Virus record (IMG/VR): IMGVR_UViG_3300046723_000060
Span: 1-63,745 of that record
Strand: one strand, 5' to 3'
From: a virus
Lineage: Duplodnaviria > Caudoviricetes
Length of the DNA stretch: 63,745 nucleotides
Of this stretch, positions 11,523 to 50,435 are shown piece by piece (positions within the stretch are counted from its first letter, which is position 1; each line of letters opens with the position of its first letter). The notes beneath the pieces were generated by a model. It was given only the letters and a program-made list of their open reading frames with translations, was not told the origin of the DNA and did no database searches. The position numbers were made by a program, and so were the translations under genes.

Positions 11523-12957
11523 CGTCGTCCGCCGATACAGGTTGCTGCACTGGATTGAGATTACGTTCCCTAACCGCCATGCCCATGAGAGTGTCAGTGT
11601 ACTCGCCAAACTCAGAGAGCTTGCGGTTATAGAGCGTCGCCTGTTTCATGAAGCGCTTGAATAGCGGTACCGTAGCCATGAATTCAGCGCCACCTGCCTT
11701 AATCATAGCGATGTGGACACAGTAATCGAGCAGAGCGTCCAAGTCTTCTCTCGCTACCTGAACTTGGTCAGCATCGAGAGTTGGTATAGGTGCATTCTCA
11801 ACCACGGTGACAGTCAGGTCGTAAGGCACGCCGTTGATACCACTGTCTGCAGGAGGATTGAGAGCGAAGAGGTTCATCCCACTGTAGCTCACCGACCTTG
11901 GTACGCCTGGATCAGCACCTTCCCATGAGGTGTTGTAGAAGTCTGAGCCACGGACTGAGCTTACTTGAGCTGGAACGTTGTTTACCCTCATAGCGAGTAG
12001 TGCCGGAGCTGAGTCTCGCAGGATAGCGCACATCTGGCGGTAGCGAGTCTCGCAGTACTGAGCACGCAACGGATCCTGAGCGTTAGACTCCCTGCTGAAC
12101 AGATCAGCCAACGCTCCCCACTTGATAGCTGGAGTCCAGTCATCGGGTATCAGGAAAGGTGTAGCTGTGCCTGTGAAGACTAAGGTGACGCCAGCCTCGA
12201 CTGTCAGCAACTCGTAGCTCCCACCAAATGCCGGTGGACAGTTGGTATCAAACGATAATGGCGGCTGAGTCGAGAGCAGATACGTAGATGGCAATCCCGG
12301 TGTGCCAGCAGGATTCAGCGTGTAGAGCGCATCGTAACTTTGTTCCGCGAACGTGTCTTCTGGCCACAGTACCGACGGCGCGGGGATGTCAATCCCCGAC
12401 TGGGCAGAACGCCCGTAAATACCGAATCCGTAGCGGCCAGTGCCATAACCTTTGCCCGTAAGCACTGATTCAGTTGGGAGATAGGCCATCCTTCTGACAT
12501 CGATGACGGTGTCAGGGAGCGTAATTCTTCCGGCGACAGCGCCAACTGTTCTGACAGTTTGCGTGCATGAGGTGATCGACAGTAGCTCATCGCGTCTCCG
12601 TTGGACTGCGTTTACAATGTCGTCGTTGGTGAATTGGACTGAGACTACGCCAGTAATAGGCTCAAGTAGATGGTAGAGAATGGTCTGGTAGAGCGATTGG
12701 TCGGTGACCGTATAAGGACACAAAGTGTTGGTGAGATTCGATATGTCGTACCATGTCGTAGAGGAGGCGGTCGGGGCCACAAAGTCTCCCCGCCAGTATC
12801 CCGTAAGTGAATTCCAAGTGCGAAGTCCCTCCGCTATGTAGGCCGTAAGTTCTGCTGAACTCCAAAACACCATGGATGCGTCGAATAAACGGTTCGCAAG
12901 CTGTTGCCTCAGTGTGCTGAGTGGAATGTAGGCATACGGCAGAGCTTGTGTCGCCAT
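11515..12957 (-). CDS. Head-tail adaptor/tail tubular protein
   Basis: LRQQLANRL..FWS.AEL..YI.EG and IPDDW..AIKWGALADLF motifs; gene position. Confidence 0.55.
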   Translation of the reverse strand: MATQALPYAYIPLSTLRQQLANRLFDASMVFWSSAELTAYIAEGLRTWNSLTGYWRGDFVAPTASSTTWYDISNLTNTLCPYTVTDQSLYQTILYHLLEPITGVVSVQFTNDDIVNAVQRRRDELLSITSCTQTVRTVGAVAGRITLPDTVIDVRRMAYLPTESVLTGKGYGTGRYGFGIYGRSAQSGIDIPAPSVLWPEDTFAEQSYDALYTLNPAGTPGLPSTYLLSTQPPLSFDTNCPPAFGGSYELLTVEAGVTLVFTGTATPFLIPDDWTPAIKWGALADLFSRESNAQDPLRAQYCETRYRQMCAILRDSAPALLAMRVNNVPAQVSSVRGSDFYNTSWEGADPGVPRSVSYSGMNLFALNPPADSGINGVPYDLTVTVVENAPIPTLDADQVQVAREDLDALLDYCVHIAMIKAGGAEFMATVPLFKRFMKQATLYNRKLSEFGEYTDTLMGMAVRERNLNPVQQPVSADDDA

Positions 12958-21695: not shown

Positions 21696-21703
21696 AAGGA
21701 TAG

Positions 21704-21732
21704 CTTATATAACTTACCTGTAAGATTGTCAA
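21704..21732 (-). promoter_or_regulatory. Sigma70-like promoter ahead of the glycosylation cluster
   Basis: TTGACA-17 bp-TATAAG in an AT-rich gap. Confidence 0.55.
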
Positions 21733-23892: not shown

Positions 23893-25035
23893 TTAGAATC
23901 CTGCGCCGACCAACTGCCAGTTGTCGCGTGGTTGAACGGTATATAGGTTGAGGCCGGCTTTCAGGAACATCACCACGAGGTCAGCGTTGGTTTGGCTCCT
24001 GATCGGTGGCGTAAAGTTGAAGTTATACTCTGGGTCGCTGGCTGGACGGAGCTTCCATCCCTTGACTCGCAGCCAGAAGAATGGCTCGCCGGGAGTACAG
24101 GAAGTTGCGCTCGGATAGTTCGAGATAGCAGCCTGAGTCGTGCTCAAAGTCGGTGTGGTGAAAGCCGTAGGCTTAATGGAGGTCGTCTGGCTCAGGTTAG
24201 ACGGCAGGATAGTGCCGTACTTGGTCGAAGGTGCCAGTTTATCCACGAAGATCGTACCGTCAAGGACCTTGAGGCCGCTGACGCCGATAGACAGGTCCTG
24301 AACCATCTCGAAACGTTGTTTCGGTTCCTGACGCTCGGCTAGGTAGCTGAACAGAGCCTTGTTGCAAAGCCCGATGTCAGGAGGCTGTACGCAGTTCTGA
24401 TAGGCTTCAAAGACTGTTTTGTAAGTGATCTGTCCAGTGTTGCCGGAAGAGTCGCCTACCCATGTCGGAACTGAGTTTAGCACGTTACCGATGGCGCCGT
24501 TGCGTGACTGGCCACCGTAAGTGGTGAATACGTTGCCGTCCCAAGATGGGTTGACGCCATCGTTCAAGGCTTCAGACAGGCCATTGATAAAGATCAGGCG
24601 GTTGGAGCCGGAGATGTTCTGACCATGACGGTAGAAGTCGATGGCGACGTCGGTATTGAGCGCCTGAACTGCGTTCTGCATGTAAGCGTCGATCAGCTTC
24701 ACCTTTACCGCGGGACCGCTGCCCTGGATTACGTTGGTCTGCCAGAGGTTCAGCGGCACCTGTTCCACGTATTCCTTGGGAACGAAGGCGGTAGCCGCGA
24801 TGATCTGCTTCTGCATGACCGTTACATCGGAGCCGGGAGCGATGGCGCCGCCGTTTACACGGTCATACATGAAGGGATCCTGCATGAACGTGCCGCCGGC
24901 AAAGTCTTCTAAAGCTCCCATGGCACGCATCTTACGCATCCAGGGAGTTTCGACGAAGAAGTTATCGACGAGGACGTCGTCCTTCAAATCAGCGAGTGTG
25001 GTTGCTGAGATTTGATCAAATGTTGGGTCAGCCAT
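23893..25035 (-). CDS. Major capsid protein
   Basis: 380 aa, follows the scaffold; ATTL.DL....VDNFF...P N-terminus; strong AGGAG RBS. Confidence 0.8.
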   Translation of the reverse strand: MADPTFDQISATTLADLKDDVLVDNFFVETPWMRKMRAMGALEDFAGGTFMQDPFMYDRVNGGAIAPGSDVTVMQKQIIAATAFVPKEYVEQVPLNLWQTNVIQGSGPAVKVKLIDAYMQNAVQALNTDVAIDFYRHGQNISGSNRLIFINGLSEALNDGVNPSWDGNVFTTYGGQSRNGAIGNVLNSVPTWVGDSSGNTGQITYKTVFEAYQNCVQPPDIGLCNKALFSYLAERQEPKQRFEMVQDLSIGVSGLKVLDGTIFVDKLAPSTKYGTILPSNLSQTTSIKPTAFTTPTLSTTQAAISNYPSATSCTPGEPFFWLRVKGWKLRPASDPEYNFNFTPPIRSQTNADLVVMFLKAGLNLYTVQPRDNWQLVGAGF

Positions 25036-25063: not shown

Positions 25064-25903
25064 TTAATTCTTGAAATCTCCACTCGTTTGCCGCTCTACT
25101 AATCTCTGCGCTGCACGAGAGACGCGATCGTTCTGCAGCTGAGTCTCGCTCTTGTTCCAAGGCTGGTTATCGCTACGCAGCTTGTCGTCGGGACGGACGG
25201 CGAAAGGAGACTTAGAGGGCAGCATGGGACGAGTCTCGGGATTGCCGAACCTTGAGACCAGTTCCGTTTCCTTTTCCTTGGCGCCTTCGGCTTTCCACTT
25301 GGCTATTTCAGCGTCGCGTTGTTTCTGGGCGGCTTGCTCACGGGCCTCACGAACCTTGAACTTCTCTTCCCAGTAAGGAAGCAATGTCTTGCCAGCGGCT
25401 TGAGCTTCACGGCGGAGTTGTTCAGCGTTAAACGGCTGGCCGGGGAAGAGTCGGGCATGTTCGTTAGCGGCGTCGAGTAATCCTGCGAGGTTAGCGGCGA
25501 AAGCGTCACCAGCTTGCTGGAACTTGTCCATGGTGAGGTAACGGTCGTCGGGAGCGGCTGCCGCAGGCTTCGGTGGCTCAGGGTCATAACCCAAGTCTTT
25601 TGTCACATCGATAAGACCTTGACGATTAGCTTCAAGCAGAGCAGCCTTGGCACGGGCAGCTTCAGCAGCAGAAGCTATGGCTTGATTCTGTACCTGTTTG
25701 AGCTTGCTATCGTTCTCGGTGTACCAGGACTGTACGCGAGCTTCGTAGTTCTTCATGGTCTCTTCGAGCTTGACTGCGGCTTGGCGAGCTTCTTCAGCAT
25801 CAGCTTGAGACTTATCGAATGCACGGCGAGAGACAACCGTGTCTAAAACCTTGATCTCATCATCTGTGGCCCCGTTAGCCTTCAAATACTCTGCGTAAGT
25901 CAT
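25064..25903 (-). CDS. Capsid scaffolding protein
   Basis: Helical, Ala/Glu/Lys-rich; directly upstream of the MCP; RBS GGAGGCAAAC before ATG 25903. Confidence 0.6.
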   Translation of the reverse strand: MTYAEYLKANGATDDEIKVLDTVVSRRAFDKSQADAEEARQAAVKLEETMKNYEARVQSWYTENDSKLKQVQNQAIASAAEAARAKAALLEANRQGLIDVTKDLGYDPEPPKPAAAAPDDRYLTMDKFQQAGDAFAANLAGLLDAANEHARLFPGQPFNAEQLRREAQAAGKTLLPYWEEKFKVREAREQAAQKQRDAEIAKWKAEGAKEKETELVSRFGNPETRPMLPSKSPFAVRPDDKLRSDNQPWNKSETQLQNDRVSRAAQRLVERQTSGDFKN

Positions 25904-25914
25904 GTTTGCCTCCA

Positions 25915-26229
25915 CTATCCGTTACTGGGCGGTGCCATTGGTTCGCCCGTTGGTGCTGATTGCATCATTCCTGCTACAACCTCGCGCATCAGGTTGTTAA
26001 TCTCACTTACCTTGGCCGATGTGGCTGGAAAGGCTTTAGCAATTGCTCGCAGGTCGCTCACTACCCTGATGGCCAGTTGTGTACCATTCTGCATCGCTGG
26101 ACTGGGTACGGGTGGCGCAGGACTGGCTGCGGTAGGCGTAGTCGGATTAACCTGAGCCGGAGAAGGTGGATTCCCAGGATCTCCCCCTGCACTTGGGGGC
26201 GGAGTCATCGCAACTGGGCTAGCCGCCAT
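25915..26229 (-). CDS. Pro-rich hypothetical protein
   Basis: ORF packed between neighbours. Confidence 0.55.
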   Translation of the reverse strand: MAASPVAMTPPPSAGGDPGNPPSPAQVNPTTPTAASPAPPVPSPAMQNGTQLAIRVVSDLRAIAKAFPATSAKVSEINNLMREVVAGMMQSAPTGEPMAPPSNG

Positions 26230-26398: not shown

Positions 26399-26485
26399 TT
26401 ACTTCTTACCGAATTTCTTCCCGTGCTCTTTCTTCTCTTCCTTCTTCTCTTTTTCCTTTTTATCTTTTTTGCCGTGATGCTTCAT
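26399..26485 (-). CDS. 28-aa Lys/Glu-rich peptide (not in the ORF track)
   Basis: MKHHGKKDKKEKEKKEEKKEHGKKFGKK; AAGGAG RBS. Confidence 0.5.
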   Translation of the reverse strand: MKHHGKKDKKEKEKKEEKKEHGKKFGKK

Positions 26486-26516: not shown

Positions 26517-26660
26517 GAAACAAAAAGCCCACTGTCACTAACGCTTGTGTCGTGATCGGAGGCAACCAATCAGGAAGGGCGTTAATAACAGTGGGCCGTA
26601 TCGTGTCTGAAAAATCCCTCGGAGGAAGATTCAGAGGATAACGAATCCTACTGGTGGGAG
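26517..26660 (-). ncRNA. Structured RNA: 18-bp stem with an inner hairpin displaying GGUUGCCUCC, followed by a U-tract
   Basis: 26527-26544 pairs with 26579-26596; both plus-strand C.A mismatches become G-U pairs on the minus strand; UUUUUGUUUC follows. Confidence 0.6.
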
Positions 26661-26689
26661 AGTACAGTAACAGGACTAGGTGTTGTCAA
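26661..26689 (-). promoter_or_regulatory. Possible promoter for the structured RNA or capsid operon
   Basis: Perfect TTGACA at 26689-26684 but only a weak -10 (TGTACT at 17 bp, TACTCT at 19 bp). Confidence 0.35.
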
Positions 26690-27089: not shown

Positions 27090-29162
27090 TCATCGGCTCT
27101 CCGTGATTGTTGATCTCGCTCCGTTATCCTTGCTCACTAAACGAGGGGCGGCTTGACCTGAAGGTGGACGACCTTCGGGATTAGGCTTAGCTGGTGGAGC
27201 TGCCGCTCCAGGTGGCGTGCCGGGTGGGACGAGACCTTCGGCTCCAGCGATTTGCTGCATACGGGCTGCGAACTCGAGATCCATCTCTTGTTCAGACTGG
27301 TAACGTTCAATGATTGTGTTGCCGTCAAGCTGGCCATAGTTGGGCAATTCCCAACTCTCTGCAATGGTCTGACTATCAATCTTCACGCCGGCTTTTCTTA
27401 GTTGTACAAGCCCTAGCTTCATAGCCATCTGAGTCATCTCATGGAGAGAGTTAGGCAGGATGAAGAATCTGAGATTATCGGCAAATACTCTAGCTCTGGT
27501 GATCTTATCTGAGGCTGAACCAAACTTGGGATCTTCGCCAGGTAAGTGAGATGGCACAAGCGAGGCTGGGTCGAAGTCGAATACCTCGGGATGTACGCCG
27601 TCCATGCCTACGATTTGCATCACTCTGGGTGTAGTGTAGTACTGCAGGACGAGATACTTGACCATCACGCCTAAGTCGCGCATCGGTGGTTCCATTGAGC
27701 GGGACATGTCCTCTACGATCGGGCCTTGAGTCTCCATGATCTTTTCTAGTTCGTCCATGGAGCCGACTGTTCTGGCCTTAGCTAGAGCTTGAATATCGTT
27801 GATAGCCAGTTGAGCGTCCATGTCGGCACCTAGTTGCTCGTACATCTGCATGGACTCTGGATAGACTTTGAGGACGTCCATGGGCACGGCCAAGTCTACG
27901 CCGATACCGTCTGCGGCGTTACCGTCTAGGCCGATACGAGCTCTAGGCTGCATGGGATCGAACCGTCGCATCTCTTTCATCGAGGTAGCGTTGGTATCGA
28001 ACTTGAGAGCAGGATCAAGTTGAGCGCGGACCTTGTCCATGTTGCCGCGCATGATTTCCTTGCGGGATTCGTTGAGTTCGTAACCGTCGTGAACGAGGCT
28101 GAAGCCTAGAGGTTCCCATGGCCAAGAGTCGGGACTGAATGAGATGCCGGGGAACATGCCGTGCCAGTCAAATCCTGGACCATCGTACATGATACAGCGG
28201 TCGGAGCTTATTAGTAGACGGCGGTAAGGATAGAGTCTCGCATCGTTCTCGTCGGCCTTACGTGTGAGAGCGCGGCCGTTAGCGTCTTGACCTACATGAA
28301 TCTCTTGTCCGATGTAAGGGACGGTGTAGGACCACGTTGAACCCGGTTCGCCCATCGGTATTGGTCTGTCAGTAGTGTTGATACTTAGATCAAGGACCCA
28401 AGTCTTTCTTACTGGGACAAGTAGGTCGGGTAGACCTGAAGTCTCAGCTCTCGGTGTCTTACCGAAGATGCGTTGCAACACATTGCCTAGAGCGGCTTTG
28501 TGTACGGCGTCGTTCTGATACCAATACTTGCTAGCAGAAGGAACTAGTCTATCTTGGTAAGAAGGAAACATGCCATGTGCCATAGCAACCGGCATTTCGT
28601 CAAGAATGGTGCATGCGTACGCTTCTTGCCAATTTCCCGAGGACGGTAACTGGGTAGGAAGGACAGATGGAGCCCCGTAAGTGAGGAGCTTGATATCACC
28701 TCGCCCTGTTCCGTGCATGTCACGACGATACACCGGATGAATCCACCCTCTACCGGTAGCGGCTGCATACTGTAGCGCCTCCTTTACCGCACGGTCTGCG
28801 AAACTCTCGAGATACCATGCGCGGGTTACTTTATTCATCATCAGCGCTTGAGGAGCGTAAGCCTTGTTATCGCTGTGATAGCCCCAGAAGGGACGGAGCT
28901 TGCTCATGACTGAGACTACTTCTCTGATGTTGCGCTTCAGGCGGTTTGGGTTAACGCGGCTGCGGTAACTAGCATTGTAGGTTGGCTGAGTATCGAGGCC
29001 GGAGATGGTGTCGAGAGCTTTACGGAAGTCCTTGAACCCACGCTGGGACTTTAACCAGGCTAAGCCATCGCCTGTAGCATCATCGAGCCAACCGATACGT
29101 TCTGATTCGGCCACTGCTGCTGGAGGTAGTTGCCAGCTCTTGAATGAGAGTTTATCAGCCAC
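27090..29162 (-). CDS. Portal protein
   Basis: 690 aa between terminase and capsid; NRLKRNIREVVS, YAAATGRGW, LVLQYYT.PRV.QIVG.DG (P22-like portal pattern). Confidence 0.8.
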   Translation of the reverse strand: MADKLSFKSWQLPPAAVAESERIGWLDDATGDGLAWLKSQRGFKDFRKALDTISGLDTQPTYNASYRSRVNPNRLKRNIREVVSVMSKLRPFWGYHSDNKAYAPQALMMNKVTRAWYLESFADRAVKEALQYAAATGRGWIHPVYRRDMHGTGRGDIKLLTYGAPSVLPTQLPSSGNWQEAYACTILDEMPVAMAHGMFPSYQDRLVPSASKYWYQNDAVHKAALGNVLQRIFGKTPRAETSGLPDLLVPVRKTWVLDLSINTTDRPIPMGEPGSTWSYTVPYIGQEIHVGQDANGRALTRKADENDARLYPYRRLLISSDRCIMYDGPGFDWHGMFPGISFSPDSWPWEPLGFSLVHDGYELNESRKEIMRGNMDKVRAQLDPALKFDTNATSMKEMRRFDPMQPRARIGLDGNAADGIGVDLAVPMDVLKVYPESMQMYEQLGADMDAQLAINDIQALAKARTVGSMDELEKIMETQGPIVEDMSRSMEPPMRDLGVMVKYLVLQYYTTPRVMQIVGMDGVHPEVFDFDPASLVPSHLPGEDPKFGSASDKITRARVFADNLRFFILPNSLHEMTQMAMKLGLVQLRKAGVKIDSQTIAESWELPNYGQLDGNTIIERYQSEQEMDLEFAARMQQIAGAEGLVPPGTPPGAAAPPAKPNPEGRPPSGQAAPRLVSKDNGARSTITESR

Positions 29163-29613: not shown

Positions 29614-31860
29614 TTAACGATACCTTTCCATCTGGTCTATTTCATACGCTAATTCGGACACCGTTGCAATCTCTCTTTGTTCCATATCCTTGGGTGAGAA
29701 CACGTTGGACGGTCTACTGGGCTGTAAGTTGAGTGGAGGTAAGGTTGAAGGGTTGACTGACCGCTTCTTACTTCTTGCGGCGATAGGTTCAAGGTCATGA
29801 GGACAGAAGCAGGCCATGGCGGCAGCAAAGACACGGTCATCGTGCTTGCCATCTTCGTGTTCGAGCTTCTCCCTGCCCGTGGCAGTAACTTTCGATTCAA
29901 AGGTTCGCATCTCTTCTAGCAGCCACGGTGAGTTGATGTGTAGCCATAAGTTCTTGGCGCAGGTAGCGAAGTAGGTGGTGAGCATCTGACGGGACCAGGT
30001 GCCGGAATACCACCCACGCTTGCGGGAGATGGCTTTGCTGCGTTGAGGGTTCTTGCCATCGTAACGGCTCATCATGTGGAAGTTAGAGTAGCCCAAACGG
30101 GCCATGTCCTTCTGGCACATATCGCCAACCGAGGCTAGTTGCTCGATACTTACGTAAGGCTCGCGCCAGCGAGTGCTCGATGGATCCATATGCGTCTTGT
30201 AGTAGGCGGCAATGCCTAAGACGAATGCGAAGGCTTCCGCATGGTTGATGTAAGAGCTAGATAGTTCGGCTACCTGAGTGTCAGGATCGTCGTCGTTCTT
30301 CCCGATAGCCCACACTGATATTGAGGTAGCGTCTTCGCCGCGGCCGGCTGCTGTATCTACGCCTATTGAGTATCTGACTCCAGGCTGAGGATGAGCCCAG
30401 ATGAAGAGTATTCCCGTAGCTGTGCCGGCATCCTTGGGATTAGGCTGGATTTGCTGCTCGAGCAAGGGTACCAGTTCCCAGCGGTAAGTCTCATCGCGCA
30501 GGTTAGTGTAACGGATGGGGATACGTTCCTTGTCGTAGTCGATATATTCTGTAGGTGGTTCGTGGTCGGCTTCTATCGATTGACCAACGATACAGAACAT
30601 GTCAAAGGTCTTCTCACGGCGTGTTTCAATCTCGGCTAATGTCTGGTGGCTGAAAGCGCTGGTGATAGACTTCTGCAAGGCTTCTTCATCGTCAGCGCAC
30701 ATTTCCTGATACCACTTGGCGGTGGTGCCGCCGCGCTTCGATTCTTCATGGCCAAACTCCCAGAACCATTGCTGTTCCCGTGGCATACGCCAGTAGAGGC
30801 CAGAATGTACGCCGCGGCGATGTTGATCTTCGACTAGATGCTTCTTTAAGAGTGGGTTTGAATCAACGTAGAGTTCGCACTTGGCAACGTGCTCGCGGGT
30901 GTCCTGGTTGGGATACCATCCTTCTGGGATAGGAAAGTCGTAGTTTATCCATTGCTGCTTGGGATACATCTCTACACCGCAGAACCATGGAAGGAATAGT
31001 GGGCAGTGACGAGCTTTGCGTAGATGCCAATAGTCGCGGGATGAACGCCAGCGGTCGGGCCACCATCCCTTATCACCTTCGCCGGAGGATTCTAGGGCGC
31101 CGAAGACGTTAGGTGAAGCGTGGACGGCGCGCAAGAGAGACGATTCAATCTGGTTCTCAGCGTCGGTGTAGGTTGCTACTTCGGATAGGTGATAGATGGT
31201 GGGAGTGGTGCCACGGGCGATACCAGACATCTGGGCGCCGTGCTGGAATGAGACTGAAGTCTGGCAGCCGCCGAAGCCCATTAGGCCGCGGTCAGATTCA
31301 ACCTTACGTGTAAGTTCAGGACGTAGCCAGACAGGCAGATATTCGTAGAAGAGACGAATCATCTTGGCCATTTCTGCGGTCTTGGTCTGGTCGGCGCTGC
31401 CAATAACAGCGTTTACGCCGTAACCGAAGACGATACGTAGTCCGATTAGGAGTTCAACGAGCGTAGACATGCCTAATTGCCGGGCTTTCAAGATGATGAA
31501 CTCTAGCGTTCTTCCAGAGGCTTCTAAGTCGGAGATGATGTTATAGAAGATTCGTTGAGGTACGCGGAAATTGAATCGGTGGATGGTTCCATCGTCATCT
31601 TTCAGGTACGCATAGCGGGTTAGAGCATAATCGGCGTCGCAACTGACCAGGAGTTGTTCGTTTAGGATCCAGTCATGCTCGAATTGAGTGAGGTTCTGAG
31701 TTCCCTTGGGAGCGCCGTTCTGGTCCAGTTCATACATGTTGTAGCGCTTGAGATGATCTTCAAAGGCTTGGACATCGGAAATGGAGTGTGGTTCGAGGGT
31801 TATCTTGAATTCACGTTGAGCTTCGTCGATACGTTGAGCGATGCGGGAGGGAGCGTACAT
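29614..31860 (-). CDS. terL: Terminase large subunit
   Basis: Walker A ILKARQLGMST, Walker B-like HLSEVA, nuclease motifs GVDTAAGRGED and HDDRVFA. Confidence 0.95.
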   Translation of the reverse strand: MYAPSRIAQRIDEAQREFKITLEPHSISDVQAFEDHLKRYNMYELDQNGAPKGTQNLTQFEHDWILNEQLLVSCDADYALTRYAYLKDDDGTIHRFNFRVPQRIFYNIISDLEASGRTLEFIILKARQLGMSTLVELLIGLRIVFGYGVNAVIGSADQTKTAEMAKMIRLFYEYLPVWLRPELTRKVESDRGLMGFGGCQTSVSFQHGAQMSGIARGTTPTIYHLSEVATYTDAENQIESSLLRAVHASPNVFGALESSGEGDKGWWPDRWRSSRDYWHLRKARHCPLFLPWFCGVEMYPKQQWINYDFPIPEGWYPNQDTREHVAKCELYVDSNPLLKKHLVEDQHRRGVHSGLYWRMPREQQWFWEFGHEESKRGGTTAKWYQEMCADDEEALQKSITSAFSHQTLAEIETRREKTFDMFCIVGQSIEADHEPPTEYIDYDKERIPIRYTNLRDETYRWELVPLLEQQIQPNPKDAGTATGILFIWAHPQPGVRYSIGVDTAAGRGEDATSISVWAIGKNDDDPDTQVAELSSSYINHAEAFAFVLGIAAYYKTHMDPSSTRWREPYVSIEQLASVGDMCQKDMARLGYSNFHMMSRYDGKNPQRSKAISRKRGWYSGTWSRQMLTTYFATCAKNLWLHINSPWLLEEMRTFESKVTATGREKLEHEDGKHDDRVFAAAMACFCPHDLEPIAARSKKRSVNPSTLPPLNLQPSRPSNVFSPKDMEQREIATVSELAYEIDQMERYR

Positions 31861-36425: not shown

Positions 36426-36454
36426 TTGACATACTTTTAGTGTAATCCTATAGT
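36426..36454 (+). promoter_or_regulatory. Strong rightward early sigma70 promoter
   Basis: TTGACA-17 bp-TATAGT upstream of the first plus-strand gene. Confidence 0.8.
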
Positions 36455-36475: not shown

Positions 36476-38520
36476 ATGAGTAAACTACATACTGAACTGG
36501 CAAGCGTTCTAGTCAATGGCAAGCTACCGTCATATGCATGGCCAGGTGGCTATCCTATGTATTACTTGGATGGCGAGAATAGCGTACTGTGCCCGGTATG
36601 CGCTGAGAAGTCTAATGATGATGAGATTCCTCAATTCCGACCAGTAGCCTATGGCGTGAACTGGGAGGATGCCAGCATGTTCTGTGATAGCTGCTGCAAG
36701 AGGATCGAATCAGCTTACGCTGAGGTTAGAACGTTTAACGCTGTTAGTACACTTTAGAGAATGGAGACAATATGAGCAAGCAATGGCACGACATGACCGA
36801 GCTGGAATATCAGCGGTCCAAGGTTACATCCTACACTGGCGGCGCAACGTGGATTAGAACGCCATGGAATACGTTTTGGGTTGCCTATGGCACGCCTATT
36901 GATATTCGCAAGGAATTGCAGCAAGGCACAGTGCGGGTAGAAGTATTCCAGCAATGGCATGATGCAACGGTATTAGCTTAAGTATTGCTCCTGCCCATTA
37001 GCAATAGTGGGCGGTATGGAGTACTTAAAGCAATAGGAGGCAACCTATGGACACACTAACAGCTGTAAGGACGTTCGCCAAACCGGGATATTCTCCGGCA
37101 AAGCGTACGCGCATTGAGGACAGCAAGTATTACCTCGTACGTATGCAGAATACGGAACGGGACCAAGGGGACGGTTATTACTTGGCAGAGGGAGAATATC
37201 GCGAATTGCTTCCTGGTGCAGCTGCACGTGCGCGTCGCGATGCCAAGTTGAATCACTGCAATGCAGTGGTGGAATGGAATGGGCCCGTGTTCGCAGTCCT
37301 TACCTCGTCTTATGGCCATTGGGATACGTCGCGCAAACCTAAGTATGCCGGCAGTCAAGCAGAGGCTAATGCGTATGTGATAGAGGCACGCGCGGCACAC
37401 GCCAAGTGGCTAGCAGACTGTGAGAAAGCATTAGTGGGTTATGAGGCAGCATACGCGAAAGATCCATCTGAATGGCGTGCGGGTAGTGTACGGGATTGCA
37501 AGCGAGTTATTGCAGAGAATCAGGACACATTCAGGTTTGAGGTATTGCAGGTACGTAACGCGTAACGGGGAATGCGCGGGAGTTTATATCCGGTAGTACC
37601 GTACCAGCAGCGGGGAATGGCTGGAACTAGAATAGAGGCTCAATATGACTAAGAAGCACTTTATCGCACTGGCGGATGTTTTAATCGCGTTACGGGAGGA
37701 TGCAATGGAGGATAAGTCTACTCCTCAAATACGGACAGGGAGGCTCGACCAATGGGGACGTATACGTAACGCATTGGGAGACTTCTGTGCCGCACAGAAT
37801 CCGCGTTTCAATCGGGATCGTTGGCTGGGCTATATTGCTGGCACTAACGGCCGCAATGGTGGAAAGGTTAAGGTGTAATCATGCGAATCTCAAGAGAAGT
37901 AGCGTTAACTTGTAAGCATTGCGGCGATGTGCTCACCTATGACCAAGGTGTGCTCGTAGATACTACAGGAGGCGACGTATGCGGCATCGCTAGCGTTAAT
38001 GGACCAGGAACAAACAATGATAATCGACCACATGAACTAACAGTAGAAACGGCAATGCTCACAGTTATTTACAATCAGATAAGGGGGAAGTTATGCGTCA
38101 AGTAATCTCTCGTGAAGTAGCGTTAACCGAGGCGTACCTCGATCATCAGGCACAGCTATCGCAGCCGTCATTTCCGCGAGTACAGGCGAGCGTATGGCCG
38201 GATGTGGTGGGAACTGTGCTGGGGATCGTGGGCTTTGTGATGCTGGTAGTGGAGTATTGGAGGGCGTGGTGAGTATTCATATGAAAAGGAAAGTTCAAGT
38301 AGACGGACTAACCCTTCCATTGTCGCGCTCGATTCTAGGATGGGTAGCGATCTTCGGCAAGGATTACATCGTTTATTTTAAGCAGAATAGCAGCGGCAAA
38401 TGGATTGTCCGCAGACCGAGAGCGCTTGAGCCTATCGCTGTAACCGATACCTTGGATACTGCGCTAGTAATTGCTAATCGACATTGGAAAGAAGTGAGAG
38501 CACCGGAGGAACGCACATGA
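36476..38520 (+). other. Cluster of small early hypothetical CDSs (36476-36757, 36772-36981, 37047-37565, 37645-37878, 37881-38105, 38093-38272, 38281-38520)
   Basis: Co-oriented short ORFs with RBSs; 38093-38272 translated manually (59 aa, C-terminal TM). Confidence 0.65.
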
Positions 38521-39089
38521 ACACTAAACTAGTCTCAGAATCACTCAAGGGAATTGTCATGGCTATCGGCCTAGTACTGCTGCTTTTCAGCATGGCTATA
38601 CTGGCACCGGAGAGCCGGGGAGACACCATTAAAGTGTCTACGATTGCCTCAGAACTAGACACTGAAAGTGTGCTACCGCTGGCTGGGGGTGTTGACGTAC
38701 AGCTTGCTGGTAACCTCATACAAGCGCAGAACGCGGCATGGGGTAAACAATGGTTTGAGGGGAGTCTGGAACTGTCTATAGAGAGCGTGCTTAAGGCTAT
38801 CGGACTCTATGTCTGGGATGGTGGGCCCACTGAGATTACCAAAGATCAGACTGCGTTTCAGGTTGTGTGGATACAGAGCCACATTGCCATTGATCCGAGG
38901 CTTACTGTTGAGTTTGATACGACGGCTATCAACTTTGGGGAGGTACCAGTATCTACACCTGAGCCTATGACGTTCGTACTAGTGCTGATGGGCCTGGTAT
39001 GGCTGGGTGTAGTGAGGTGGAGTAATAGGCAGAGTATGGCGGATCGCATCGTGGAGCGCGTACGTGCTTATAAGGGGATGCAGCCATGA
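38517..39089 (+). CDS. Exported protein with a PEP-CTERM-like sorting signal
   Basis: N-terminal hydrophobic signal; C-terminal STPEPMTFVLVLMGLVWLGVVRW followed by basic residues. Confidence 0.7.
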   Translation: MNTKLVSESLKGIVMAIGLVLLLFSMAILAPESRGDTIKVSTIASELDTESVLPLAGGVDVQLAGNLIQAQNAAWGKQWFEGSLELSIESVLKAIGLYVWDGGPTEITKDQTAFQVVWIQSHIAIDPRLTVEFDTTAINFGEVPVSTPEPMTFVLVLMGLVWLGVVRWSNRQSMADRIVERVRAYKGMQP

Positions 39090-40675
39090 CAAACAAACAC
39101 AGAATCGTTTGCACTTGTAATCCGAAATGCTCAAGCGTGGAGTACTGTGACGGATGGAAGTGTGAGAATTGCAACAATATGGCACACCTAGACGGATTTC
39201 ATCCTTGCGACGAACACGGCCGCGAGATGGAACCAGTGGACGGATGGAATGGCTTATACGTGTGCGGTAGGTGCGCCAATGTCTACGAACAACGAACTGG
39301 CAAGCGTTATCTCACCACAGAAGATGTGGCAGCAGGGGTACGGGCAGGGCAGTAGAGGTAAGAGACGGTTAAGGAGGCAACCATGAGGTCGATACTGAAA
39401 GGATTCACTACGCAAGTAGAAGCAAACGCCTTTGGCAAAGAGCTGCCAAGGCCCACACTTAGATCGTGGCATATTAACCGTGAGAAGTCTGGACACATGC
39501 GCTACGTAGTTGCCACTGATACAGAAAGAGTTGCTAGCGTCTATACCGAATCAAATGCTCGTCTAATCGCAGCGGTGCCGGACCTTTTAGACTTAGTATG
39601 CGCCTTTGAAAGCTACTTGGAAGATAACAGTCAAAGCGAGCGGCGCCGTGCTCATTGCTTGGCAGAAATAAAGAATGTTCTCGACAAAGCTATAGGGTAG
39701 AGGCAGGGCAGTAGAGATAAGAGACGGTTAAGAACGATTTGACGGTTTAGGGAGGCAACCATGAGTACGATTGAGAAGGGGAAGTATATGCATACACCAG
39801 GGCCGTGGTTTGTAGGCACGGGATGGATAGGTGCCGGTGAGATCAGGGAAGGCCGTGTCATTGCTCGGGTGGATAACTACCCATACGGTGACAGTGAAGC
39901 TAACATCCGACTCTTAGCAGCGGCACCGGAGTTGCTGGAGGCTTTGCGGTCTGCAATTAAAGTACTGCGGTGGGCAGGTGGTAATGAAGAACGTGTCTAT
40001 GATGCAGCAGTGGCTGCAATCGCCAAAGCCGAGGGGCGACCATGAGATACGGAGGCAAGGAGGCAACCATGAATACGACAGTAGAACTGACACAAGAGCG
40101 AGTGAGCAACTATGTTGCAAGGGGAGGCGTGCGCTGTCCGTTCTGTGATAGCGAGGACGTGGGTGGAGGATTTATCTCCATTGAGCCGGGAGTGGCGACA
40201 CAGCTAGTAAATTGCTCTAGCTGCGACAAGGAATGGACAGATATTTATAAGTTGCATGACATTCAGGTGCAGTCATGAGATACGGAGGCTCGATCAGAGC
40301 GTACCAAGCTGGTGAACATGAGCTGGCAGACCTGCTAGCGGACGTAGACAGTGAGGATGTGCTGGTCTATATGCCGCATACGGACGATACGGGGGATATA
40401 CGGAGGCTGGCTGAGGCATGGGCACAAGAGGAGGGGTTGACGTCATGGGAGAACTGACATTATTCGTAGCACAATTTGAATCCTCAAACTTTGAGTTTGA
40501 AGGATTCGGAACCAGTGACAAGGCTGCCAGAAAATCCTTGTTACGTGTGCTACGGACGCATTGTAAGCAACGTGGTGCCAAACTGAAAGAGTTCTACTAT
40601 CCAGATGAAGTGTTCGTGCGTGAAGTACGGACAGGAGACGGATTTATAGACAAAGAGAAAATATGCGCGTCCTGA
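39086..40675 (+). other. Cluster of small early CDSs (39086-39355, 39383-39700, 39761-40045, 40069-40278, 40275-40457, 40445-40675)
   Basis: Cys-rich Zn-binding ORFs; two ORFs share N(A/I)RL(I/L)AA.P(D/E)LL. Confidence 0.65.
39343..39732 (+). repeat. 31-bp direct repeat (39343-39373 and 39702-39732) flanking gene 39383-39700
   Basis: GGCAGGGCAGTAGAG(G/A)TAAGAGACGGTTAAG, one mismatch. Confidence 0.9.
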
Positions 40676-46383: not shown

Positions 46384-46726
46384 GACTGAAAATGGATACC
46401 ATTAGTGGTGTGCAAGAGCACTTACAAGCCTCTACATCTTGTTGTAGCGTGAGCTATAAAACGATGCTATGGTCGCTCACCTCGGAGGCATCCCGTGTTT
46501 GAAATCCCCAATAAATGCCCAGTATGTGGCTTCACTGGCCTACTTCCTACCTACGTTCGCCAACCGTGGATAGTGAAACTCTTTGCTAAATGGATGCGAA
46601 AACCAGCGCCACAAGACTTTATGGCGGTAACCTGTACCGAGTGCCGATATAAATTTGCAGTACTGCCCACTGTGCTATCAAATATCCCTTGACTTATGCA
46701 CCGTAGTGTGCCACAGTGTGTACACC

Positions 46727-48718: not shown

Positions 48719-49018
48719 GGTCAGGTCTGGTGTGGCTTGGTATGGTCAGGCCAGGCATGGAGAGGTTGGGTCTGATACGGCGTGGTAAGCAGAGGTTTGG
48801 TGCGGTGAGATAGGGAAAGCAATGGCAAGGCCGGGTCTGGTTAGGCTCGGCTTGGTCAGGCGAGGCGCGGTGCGGTTAGGCATGGCTAGGATTGGTCTGG
48901 TGCGGAACGGTAAGGTCAGGCGAGGACGGGCAAGGTGGTGCAAGCAGAGGTAAGGCGCCGCAGTGTTAGGCGGGACAAGGTGCGGTTCGGCAAGCTCAGG
49001 TAAGGCTAGGCATGGGAT
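48719..49018 (+). ncRNA. GGY-NN pentamer array (60 in-phase units); putative guide-RNA locus of VIPR type
   Basis: Exact 5-nt period over 300 bp with no indel; by hand 50/60 units start GG and 44/60 start GG(C/T); last two bases vary; fills the gap ahead of a RAMP-like gene. Confidence 0.8.
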
Positions 49019-49040
49019 TCTTTAAACGGAGGCAACCGAA

Positions 49041-49649
49041 ATGGCAACAACATTAGTTCCTGAACTGAACGCAGTGAGCAATGACGCAAAGTCGTCAATC
49101 GTCGAGCCCTACGTGGCCGAGGTTGACATCCAAGGTGTAACTGCGTTTCTGTTCCATCGTTGGTCGGTAGACGGAGTGGAAGCCAAGGCCAACGCGGCTA
49201 AGGGTAGTAAAGCTAAGAAGTCTGATGACATTGAGTCATATGTGTATCGACTGGACGATGGAAACTTAGCTATTCCATCAGAGTATCTACGGATGGCGAT
49301 TATCGGCGCTGCCAAGTTTAAGCAGGATCCTCGCTCGCCGCGCAAGAGTGCGATGGATTTGTTCAAGGCAGGACTGACATGCCTTGATGAACTGTGTGAC
49401 CTTGGAACCAAAGATTGGGATTACGTTGACCGCCGCAGAGTTCAAGTACAACGTAACGCGATTACCCGCTCGCGGCCTGCGCTAAAGGTGGGATGGAAGA
49501 TTTCAGTGCGGTTACAAGTACTCTTACCGGAGTACATTAATCCAGACATGTTGAATGATGCAGTACAGTCGGCTGGAAGATTGATTGGGATTGGTGACTT
49601 CCGTCCCACCTTTGGAAGGTATCAAGTCACTGGATTCAGGATTGAATAA
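49041..49649 (+). CDS. Stand-alone RAMP/Cas7-like protein; putative Vipr-type RNA-guided effector
   Basis: First strand VDIQGVTAFLFH; AIPSEYLRMAIIGAA (RAMP IP.S.LKG-like helix); thumb-like DRRRVQVQRNAITRSRP; C-terminal Gly-rich loop AGRLIGIGDFRPTFGRYQV. Confidence 0.75.
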   Translation: MATTLVPELNAVSNDAKSSIVEPYVAEVDIQGVTAFLFHRWSVDGVEAKANAAKGSKAKKSDDIESYVYRLDDGNLAIPSEYLRMAIIGAAKFKQDPRSPRKSAMDLFKAGLTCLDELCDLGTKDWDYVDRRRVQVQRNAITRSRPALKVGWKISVRLQVLLPEYINPDMLNDAVQSAGRLIGIGDFRPTFGRYQVTGFRIE

Positions 49650-49688: not shown

Positions 49689-50435
49689 ATGAACATGAAC
49701 GAGACACAGCTGGATCTGGCACAACAACTGAAGGCTGAGTTTGAGAAGAATGAGCCTAAGCCTGCACCTAATCAGGCCATCCTGGAGTTACAGAAGCAGG
49801 CTACTCAAGTTCAGCAAGAATCCAAGATGAAACAGTGGTCGGGACTCTCCGGTTACAGCTATCAGGAGATTGGCATCGTCAAGATGGCTGAGCTGTATTA
49901 CTCCATGAACTGGGGCTGGACGGTACCGCAATCTATCCTTATGGCTATCCACTGTGCCAAGTTTGATTACAAAGTAGACCCGGCTGAAGGGCATGTCTAT
50001 ATGACACCAGCTGGGAGAATTGGAACCTCACTTGAGGGCTTGAAGATCAAATCTGAACACAAGGGAATGAAGATCGGGCATCCCAAGTTTGATGAAGTTA
50101 CTCGGCCTTGGCCACAAGGTAAGTTTCTGCAAGTAAAAGGTCAAGACAGGATTAAGCGCGAAGCTACTATGGAACAGGACCAAGGAGTGAAATGCACGCT
50201 GGTTATAAACGATGAGCCCATAGAATACACAGCTTGGGCCAGCGAGTGGATGGTTGGTACCAATCCTAACTGGGTAGAGAAGCCTATGCACATGTTGAGA
50301 GTCAGAGCTGAAATGCACTGCATCAAGTTTGCTACTGGGATAGGAGTGAGTGAAGAGTTGGTTGATTCCGTACCTTCTACTGAGCCCGTCAGGCAGGAGC
50401 CTAAAGCTCCCAAGGAAACTCCGTTTGTGAGGTAG
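49689..50435 (+). CDS. RecT/Bet-like single-strand annealing protein
   Basis: VDPAEGHVY, TSLEGL, W.EKPMHMLRVRAE.HCIKFA.G resembles the Redbeta/RecT C-terminal motif. Confidence 0.65.
   Translation: MNMNETQLDLAQQLKAEFEKNEPKPAPNQAILELQKQATQVQQESKMKQWSGLSGYSYQEIGIVKMAELYYSMNWGWTVPQSILMAIHCAKFDYKVDPAEGHVYMTPAGRIGTSLEGLKIKSEHKGMKIGHPKFDEVTRPWPQGKFLQVKGQDRIKREATMEQDQGVKCTLVINDEPIEYTAWASEWMVGTNPNWVEKPMHMLRVRAEMHCIKFATGIGVSEELVDSVPSTEPVRQEPKAPKETPFVR

Follow-up and report, generated by a model that had tools for sequence, protein, structure and literature searches.

Phage RNAs that block ribosome-binding sites (RBSs), and terminated late leaders that double as small RNAs, are already known. In phages P1 and P7, the loop of the c4 RNA and its target differ together. 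Host-encoded examples exist in S. aureus, where RNAIII hairpins and RsaE expose anti-Shine-Dalgarno (anti-SD) loops, including that of a terminator hairpin, and reach the SD sequences of several mRNAs through short UCCC seeds. We describe here an RNA element of IMGVR_UViG_3300046723_000060, a complete virus record of 63,745 bp with direct terminal repeats, which was analysed over its whole length and is called the window below. This soil phage carries, just ahead of its head genes, a hairpin on the minus strand (within 26517-26689), the strand of the structural genes and presumably the late one. The apical loop of the hairpin is complementary to an RBS cassette shared by several genes of the presumably early plus strand, and loop and cassette vary together between sister phages.

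The loops of the c4 RNA of P1/P7 pair with an RBS; the heteroimmunity between the two phages depends on the sequence specificity of this binding (PMC12197685, in part). The element of the window would resemble c4 as a phage RNA whose loop pairs around an RBS to block translation (PMC12197685, in part), but c4 belongs to an immunity circuit and has a single target operon (icd-ant) downstream, whereas the predicted targets here are five dispersed genes, 10-23 kb away on the other strand; moreover, the element has no Rfam match. The sar RNA of P22 (RF00262) is likewise a small phage antisense RNA that occludes an RBS, but it is cis-encoded opposite its target. In the whole window no Rfam family was matched at its gathering score, and sar, the sole hit at E <= 10, is noise (13.8 bits versus a gathering score of 43, E = 6.8).

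In StxS, a late leader that ends at a terminator works as a trans-acting RNA; it base-pairs with its targets, among them a phage gene (PMC7547250, in part). As with StxS and the lambda-type 6S RNA (PR'-tR'), the unit described here would give a short RNA from a promoter just upstream of late genes and ahead of a strong promoter-proximal terminator (PMC7547250, in part). The layout is indeed of this type, with a promoter-like element ~160 nt upstream of the U-tract and the terminator immediately before the head module. It differs in its position between portal and head genes rather than ahead of lysis genes, in that no Q-type antiterminator domain was found in the window genome, and in that the predicted seed is situated within the loop of the terminator hairpin itself, with phage early genes sharing one RBS as predicted targets. 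In T4, the RegB and RegA proteins act on an extended SD motif, that of RegB being built around GGAG (PMC3014915, in part). The likeness lies in the switching off of many early genes post-transcriptionally through a motif in the SD region; the T4 agents are a nuclease and a repressor protein, in contrast to the RNA proposed here, with a pairing specificity of 10-13 bp. Compared with RNAIII and RsaE, complementarity in the window runs 5 nt beyond the SD and defines a cassette private to the phage. In the literature searched, which covered few subscription journals and the StxS and VIPR papers without their supplements, we found no description of a single phage RNA loop reaching several early genes of the same phage by way of one identical RBS cassette.

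A conserved minus-strand hairpin with a nearly invariant apex

The terminator hairpin (26527-26596, minus strand) was delineated by direct reading and by folding. Its lower stem pairs 26596-26579 with 26544-26527 (18 bp including two G.U pairs) and is followed by an internal loop and a 7-bp apical stem, in which 26572-26566 pairs with 26559-26553; the sequence enclosed is UGAUU-GGUUGCCUCC-GAUCA (26572-26553). The stem base (GGCCCAC.../...GUGGGC) is G+C-rich and directly followed 3' by the U-tract UUUUUGUUU, read as the run TTTTTGTTT (26518-26526), which is the arrangement of an intrinsic terminator. A simple terminator scan, limited to loops of 3-8 nt without internal loops, missed it. An earlier sequence-only reading of this DNA had reported the 18-bp stem with its two G.U pairs and U-tract, all of which are read directly on the minus strand, and a 10-nt loop complementary to an RBS. 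The complementarity is exact, since the 10-mer GGUUGCCUCC (GGTTGCCTCC; 26558-26567, minus strand) is the perfect complement of GGAGGCAACC. The loop size has to be corrected: the predicted loop proper has 6 nt, UUGCCU (26565-26560), and is closed by two G-C pairs between the outer GG and CC of the 10-mer.

For the 184-nt region, the folding energy is -63.5 kcal/mol (z = -6.3), with none of 200 shuffles as stable, and the hairpin is the most stable of 15,918 80-nt windows taken on both strands (-42.2 versus a mean of -17.6, standard deviation 5.1). We collected relatives with two queries. The portal protein retrieved 28 viral contigs, 26 of which extend downstream of the portal gene; the hairpin was present in 9 of these 26, at a portal identity of 92-96%. 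The terminase retrieved 79 metagenome loci, seven of them with the unit (one truncated). Pooling gave a close set of 8 distinct sequences with 5 distinct hairpins. Two pattern scans of viral contigs for further hairpin variants returned, among the matches listed, only contigs already known. In the close set, the consensus structure comprises 36 pairs with 94.3% of cells paired, versus 35-51% in slid controls (5 distinct sequences only), and 10 consensus pairs are changed on both sides, versus 3.4 +/- 1.3 in shuffles (0 of 500 reach 10). Each of the 5 distinct hairpins contains 3-4 G.U pairs valid on the late strand only; this strand folds better than the opposite one in four of the five versions, and the T-tract is found on it alone. 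The element is a strongly folded, selected RNA structure of the minus strand.

The lower stem and internal loops vary in sequence and length among close relatives, the stems by compensation. The apex UUGG-UGCCUCCGA, in contrast, is invariant at 13 of its 14 bases across the 8 distinct close sequences, and the variable base is U or A. The loop is therefore under sequence selection beyond the needs of a terminator, and the conservation on which the sequence-only reading had counted is observed among close relatives.

More distant relatives retain the unit with other apices. We scanned 17 loci with 60-68% portal identity for a hairpin followed by a T-tract and studied 13 of them closely, leaving out L010, L012 and L027 (identical to L011) and L021 (no clear terminator). 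In 13 of 13, a TTGACA stands directly after the upstream open reading frame (ORF), 100-155 nt before a GGCCCG-based terminator, and a T-tract lies 3' of the hairpin in these 13 as in all close relatives. Their hairpin apices are unrelated to that of the window, or the hairpin is short and plain. The loop is absent from these relatives and the shared RBS likewise. Comparison of the distant leader RNAs with their own start regions revealed no excess of complementarity and no excess of own over cross matches, the 9-mer complements of these leaders being located in coding sequence and not at RBSs. The promoter-leader-terminator unit is thus family-wide, and its ancestral role was probably the control of head-gene transcription by termination and read-through.

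The shared ribosome-binding site and its covariation with the loop

The 10-mer GGAGGCAACC occurs in six exact copies, all on the plus strand, and is the most frequent strand-specific 10-mer of the genome (6 copies versus 4 for the runner-up). Five of the six are located 0-3 nt 5' of an ATG (genes 37047, 39383, 39761, 40069 and 49041) and the sixth is the complement of the hairpin loop; the RBS is thus common to several early genes and the hairpin copy is the only one placed otherwise, just as the sequence-only reading had it. CAACC follows 6 of the 81 plus-strand GGAGG, whereas the next commonest 5-mer follows 3. Near copies of the cassette precede genes 36476 and 46915 on the plus strand and the 279-aa head-module gene with its ATG at 25903 on the minus strand.

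Predicted target sites on the plus strand, with energies corrected for accessibility, were the RBSs of gene 37047-37565 (172 aa, no family; site 37036-37045, -7.9 kcal/mol), of genes 39383-39700 and 39761-40045, both phrog_1273 (39373-39382, -8.5 kcal/mol, and 39751-39760, -9.4 kcal/mol), of gene 40069-40278 (69 aa; 40059-40068, -8.5 kcal/mol) and of a Vipr-like gene, 49041-49649. At the latter RBS, CGGAGGCAACCGA (49027-49039, -8.0 kcal/mol), pairing with the loop is longest: its 13 bp, one of them G.U, agree with what had been proposed earlier for the RBS of a "RAMP gene". A partial target on the same strand as the hairpin was predicted at 25904-25913 (minus strand, -5.2 kcal/mol), where the RBS GGAGGCAAAC of the 279-aa gene directly precedes the ATG and offers 8 contiguous bases. 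The sequence-only reading had named this site as a possible partial cis target, which stands; its label of "scaffold" for the gene (25064-25915) found no support in any search.

The predicted 6-nt loop costs 0.0 kcal/mol to open in its U form and 1.1 in its A form, versus 7.05 for the full 10-mer. The 10-bp duplex between loop and RBS amounts to -18.9 kcal/mol, versus -7.0 for the GGAGG:CCUCC core and -15.0 with the non-cognate loop. When opening costs on both RNAs were included, the five genes with an exact RBS scored between -7.9 and -9.4, and the best of the other start regions (144 crude ones in all), that of the 279-aa head gene, -5.2. Hence the RNA is predicted to offer an accessible seed complementary to target start regions, as expected of an anti-RBS RNA. 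With <= -6 kcal/mol as cut-off, four start regions of the window are hit by the window RNA, whereas G001, the complete genome of a sister phage with the A loop, offers none; the G001 RNA hits 4 start regions in G001 and 1 in the window, that of gene 46495. The cassette genes did not stand out in a duplexfold comparison with a 28-nt query, which was set aside, as long bulged duplexes dominate its output.

A check of covariation between loop and RBS had been suggested with the sequence-only reading, and we ran it between sister phages. The result was mostly favourable, 2 A-loop and 4 U-loop phages deviating in the expected direction, with reservations taken up below (one variable position, one inferred event, four exceptions). 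In G001, the complete genome behind L008, the loop is GGAUGCCUCC; GGAGGCATCC is present five times, as the hairpin copy and at 4 RBSs, and GGAGGCAACC is lacking. L177, also with an A loop, has one GGAGGCATCC RBS, one GGAGGCATCA and no AACC. Conversely, phages with the U loop carry AACC RBSs (two in G003/L182, one in L179 plus one copy without start codon, two in L180) and no ATCC. Counting exact RBS-placed 10-mers of own versus other type gave 5:1 for the window, 2:0 for G003/L182, 1:0 for L179, 2:0 for L180, 4:0 for G001 and 1:0 for L177. With orthologous sites merged, the contrast was 6:1 versus 0:5 (Fisher p = 0.015), and with the tandem pair 39383/39761 merged too, 5:1 versus 0:5 (~0.013 one-sided, hand calculation).

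A similar picture was obtained with the RBS-placed ratio GGAGGCAA:GGAGGCAT, which was 8:3 in the window, 6:1 in G003, 4:2 in L179, 5:1 in L180 and 2:1 in L181, all with the U loop, versus 1:7 in G001 and 0:5 in L177. Five distant genomes without the loop had 0-2 copies of GGAGGCAWCC and 0-2 RBS-placed copies of each 8-mer. Genes carrying these sites are mostly non-orthologous between the window and G001, where tblastn found a hit for one of eight window proteins. At orthologous RBSs, those of the phrog_1273 gene and of the 279-aa head gene switch from A to T with the loop. The orthologue of the 39751 RBS in L177 is GGAGGCATC, and position 8 of the head-gene RBS is A in 5 of 5 distinct U-loop sequences and T in 2 of 2 A-loop sequences. 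The RBS of the MKLTGKV gene switches with the loop in G001, not in G003.

Two further observations concern individual copies. Genes 39383-39700 and 39761-40045 are tandem paralogues, and their upstream junction GGCAGGGCAGTAGAG..TAAGAGACGGTTAAG was duplicated together with the cassette (39340-39763). The RBS of gene 46495-46692, CTCGGAGGCATCC (46480-46493, plus strand), is a 13-nt perfect complement of the A-type apex of L006 and L007, not of the U-type loop of the window; it may be a recombination relic or a cross-phage target.

A proposed anti-RBS leader RNA and its rivals

A -35-like hexamer TTGACA lies at 26684-26689 (minus strand), right after the stop codon of the upstream small ORF and 87 nt from the stem, the sequence-only reading having placed it about 90 nt upstream. 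It was found in 21 of 21 relatives examined (8 distinct close, 13 distant), 100-160 nt upstream of the U-tract. The candidate -10 hexamer TACTCT (26659-26664, minus strand) stands 19 nt after it; all 8 close sequences and 5 of the 13 distant ones have TAnnnT at this spacing, with one more at 18 nt, and the spacer is constant in length and variable in sequence. Transcription from this motif to the terminator would yield an RNA of ~136 nt (26518-26653, minus strand). Upstream of the terminator hairpin, this RNA would contain hairpin B (GGAU/AUCC, 26636-26648, minus strand), the first consensus helix, within a 5' motif, (A)GGAUUC, also found in distant relatives, and hairpin C (26606-26635, minus strand), with a second CCUCC in its loop (CUUCCUCCGAGG). 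The outer stem of hairpin C is compensatory (UCUGAA/UUCAGA in the window versus CCUGAC/GUCAGG in relatives), and its inner part is deleted in L002/L182. The U-tract lies just 32 nt ahead of the next ATG (26485), so that the head genes must be reached by read-through.

We hold with moderate confidence that this promoter-proximal terminated leader RNA has been co-opted as a repressor that targets the RBSs of a set of early genes, the Vipr-like (VIPR) gene included. According to this proposal, a small transcription unit on the structural-gene strand (TTGACA-19 nt-TAnnnT) would produce a ~135-nt leader, in which two small hairpins precede a very strong intrinsic terminator. In the clade of the window, the terminator hairpin would have been lengthened and capped with an apical stem-loop, whose loop U(U/A)GCCU and closing GG/CC would read the 10-nt cassette GGAGGCA(A/U)CC of several early-strand genes. 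Either as terminated RNA or at the 5' end of a read-through late mRNA, the hairpin would nucleate on AGGCAA through its open loop, and the duplex would then grow to 10-13 bp and cover the SD up to the start codon. Exclusion of 30S subunits would reduce translation of the cassette genes, the Vipr-like gene among them, and the 279-aa downstream head gene would be affected more weakly.

Several points weigh against this proposal. The covariation rests on a single polymorphic position and has exceptions: window 46484 carries GGAGGCATCC (its junction keeps T, as in G001), G003 23486 has ATC where the orthologous window site has AAC, L179 776 has ATC and G001 48244 has AAC. RBS copies 39373 and 39751 stem from the tandem duplication and are not independent. 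In the one tree built, that of the 279-aa head gene rooted with distant relatives, L006 (A) and L007 (A) branch before a U-loop clade (support 97/99), which is nested in an A-loop grade; one loop change thus suffices, and loop state is confounded with descent. The head-gene RBS itself is weak evidence, because its spacer after GGAGGCA varies a good deal and the site, 650 nt away, is linked to the hairpin. As to pairing, closing G-C pairs tie up 4 of the 10 complementary bases and leave 6 predicted unpaired, the predicted loop of the A variant is reduced to 4 nt, and whole-molecule cofolding, a method unable to model loop-target contacts, ranks other genes above the cassette genes. Finally, the promoter is weak by sigma-70 rules (a 19-nt spacer, uncalled by a sigma-70 scan), its -10 hexamer recurs in just 5 of the 13 distant relatives, and the 17 sequencing runs listed for the record, with small shares, are all of soil DNA and none of RNA. 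Nevertheless, neutral history does not readily explain a loop-matching base at many separate RBSs in unrelated genes, nor a cassette found only with the loop.

It is conceivable, though in our view unlikely, that the hairpin is solely a terminator or attenuator of head-gene transcription, with an apex kept for a protein (antiterminator, nuclease) or for co-transcriptional folding and a functionless match to the RBS. The family-wide unit does work with unrelated apices or short hairpins, the 32 nt leave no room for another head-gene promoter, so that read-through must be regulated or leaky, and the loop polymorphism needs one event, with exceptions to the covariation. Such a terminator leaves unexplained, however, why the most stable hairpin of the genome has an apex exactly complementary to the top 10-mer, why cassette and loop are found together in one clade and why the variable base of the cassette tracks the loop in non-orthologous genes of two A-loop phages. 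Nor was a regulator of read-through recognised: searches of the complete genome with the Q-type antiterminator families PF06530 and PF03589 (E <= 0.1) and with the sigma-70 region 2 domain were negative, unrelated antiterminators being possible. We consider it quite improbable that the loop acts mainly in cis, pairing within read-through late mRNA with the 279-aa head-gene RBS ~620 nt downstream to tune this gene relative to the capsid protein, the early matches being secondary. The switch of position 8 from A (5 U-loop sequences) to T (2 A-loop sequences), and the rank of this site as best after the five cassette genes, would fit; but it offers only 8 contiguous bases and -5.2 versus -7.9 to -9.4 kcal/mol at the early sites, its variable spacer and tight linkage make co-inheritance expected, and it is left unexplained why the full 10-mer is enriched on the early strand.

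Even less credit goes to the idea that GGAGGCAWCC is read by a phage protein, as RNA at early starts or as an oriented DNA word, the hairpin copy being a further site or a decoy. All six exact copies do share one DNA strand, and in T4 the motif used by RegB at early starts extends around GGAG (PMC3014915, in part). Yet RNA of the hairpin strand carries the complement and not the motif, and the G.U pairs and T-tract assign the functional RNA to the late strand. For a DNA word, a position 0-3 nt before start codons in 5 of 6 copies would be unexpected, and the invariant loop and its joint presence with the cassette argue against this idea as well. The least probable explanation, to which we attach scarcely any weight, is an RNase III processing site that would separate portal-side from head-gene mRNA, as in T7-like phages, with an incidental apex. 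An 18-bp perfect stem followed by an internal loop and a 7-bp apical stem resembles known substrates of this enzyme; but a U-tract right after the G+C-rich stem base is conserved in all relatives, the ~10-bp versions in L015, L018 and L020 are too short for RNase III, and invariant loop and covariation remain unaccounted for; the G.U pairs, the one-sided T-tract and the joint presence of loop and cassette also speak against it.

If the anti-RBS leader is real, temporal regulons of uncultured phages would become predictable from sequence, and the window would provide a natural portable RBS tag read by RNA and a candidate regulator of a VIPR system. The loop/RBS pairs of sister phages are one base apart, which makes a clean specificity swap possible. 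A bolder extension, which we regard as doubtful, is a private "address code", in which the 10-nt RBS cassette would enrol any gene in one post-transcriptional regulon read by a single leader loop. Such a code would be an RNA counterpart of T4 RegA/RegB; its U versus A letter would separate self from a co-infecting relative and could silence the genes of a rival, and the presence of the VIPR effector gene in the regulon would tie RNA-guided DNA silencing to the infection clock.

Other observations on the leader are recorded here. A (G)GGAUUC-like word near its 5' end (26645-26651, minus strand) recurs family-wide as GGGATTC, GGGAATC and GGGTTCC; a GGAUUC-like word is also present at 49014-49020 (plus strand), just 5' of the vipr-like RBS, an occurrence that may be due to chance. 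A second seed was sought and rejected, the complements of the CCUCC loop of hairpin C and of the internal loop of the G001 hairpin being not clearly RBS-placed and those of hairpin C showing no RBS excess. Similarly, a second TTGACA-N15-TACTGT (12366-12392) is intragenic and followed by neither leader nor terminator.

The Vipr-like gene and the setting of the element

The 202-aa product of 49041-49649 matches PDB chain 36pp_D, "SUSP1 Vipr protein", with E = 1.3e-4. A GGYNN repeat pattern gave 30 hits in the window, versus 0.1 expected; 28 are clustered at 48719-49011, within 300 nt 5' of the vipr-like gene, and the remaining 2 (38991-39018) are in coding sequence. The cluster comprises at least two arrays with a common AAGCAGAGGT-containing tail. 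GGYNN repeats beside vipr are the signature of VIPR (PMC13142463, in part), and 48719-49649 (plus strand) is probably a VIPR system, in which the next gene, 49689-50435, could be an accessory gene. The "RAMP gene" of the sequence-only reading, there a candidate RNA-guided effector, is thus plausibly a Vipr-like protein with adjacent GGYNN repeat RNAs. The hairpin itself is ruled out as a vrRNA (9-16 tandem YNNGG repeats and a conserved tail next to vipr) by the repeat pattern search, which gave no GGYNN hit in 26517-26689; the distance between hairpin and vipr-like gene is 22 kb.

On the minus strand, the genes for terminase (29614-31860), portal (27090-29162) and major head protein (23893-25035) were identified, and the element is flanked on one side by two small ORFs 3' of the portal gene and on the other by the first ORF of the head module. 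Family searches assigned neither the two upstream ORFs nor the small ones downstream, and an Atlas search returned only viral hypotheticals, with scores < 0.9. A near-consensus sigma-70 promoter, TTGACA-17-TATAAG (21702-21732, minus strand), is predicted in an intergenic gap of the tail region. The plus strand carries, from ~36.4 kb, small ORFs mostly without assigned function. A consensus sigma-70 promoter, TTGACA-17-TATAGT (36426-36454, plus strand), is predicted directly 5' of the first early-strand gene (36476), whose RBS matches the cassette at 9 of 10 positions.

Megablast of 4 kb against GenBank phages gave no match, and no related prophage was found among 185,579 species genomes. By terminase protein, the closest cultured relatives are the Tunturiibacter phages Tunturi_1 (PP887698.1, our L264) and Tunturi_2, with 33% identity over 95% of the protein. 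This kinship hints at an acidobacterial host. Their genomes of ~63 kb have terminase, portal and head genes in the same order as the window, and the corresponding intergenic region shows the reverse arrangement, terminator first and promoter-like sequence after. The head module of the window opens with a Lys/Glu-rich 28-aa micro-ORF (MKHHGKKDKK..., 26399-26485, minus strand), which has a good SD and a start conserved in close relatives; a similar, unannotated K/E-rich micro-ORF occupies the equivalent place in Tunturi_1 (L264 5736-5804).

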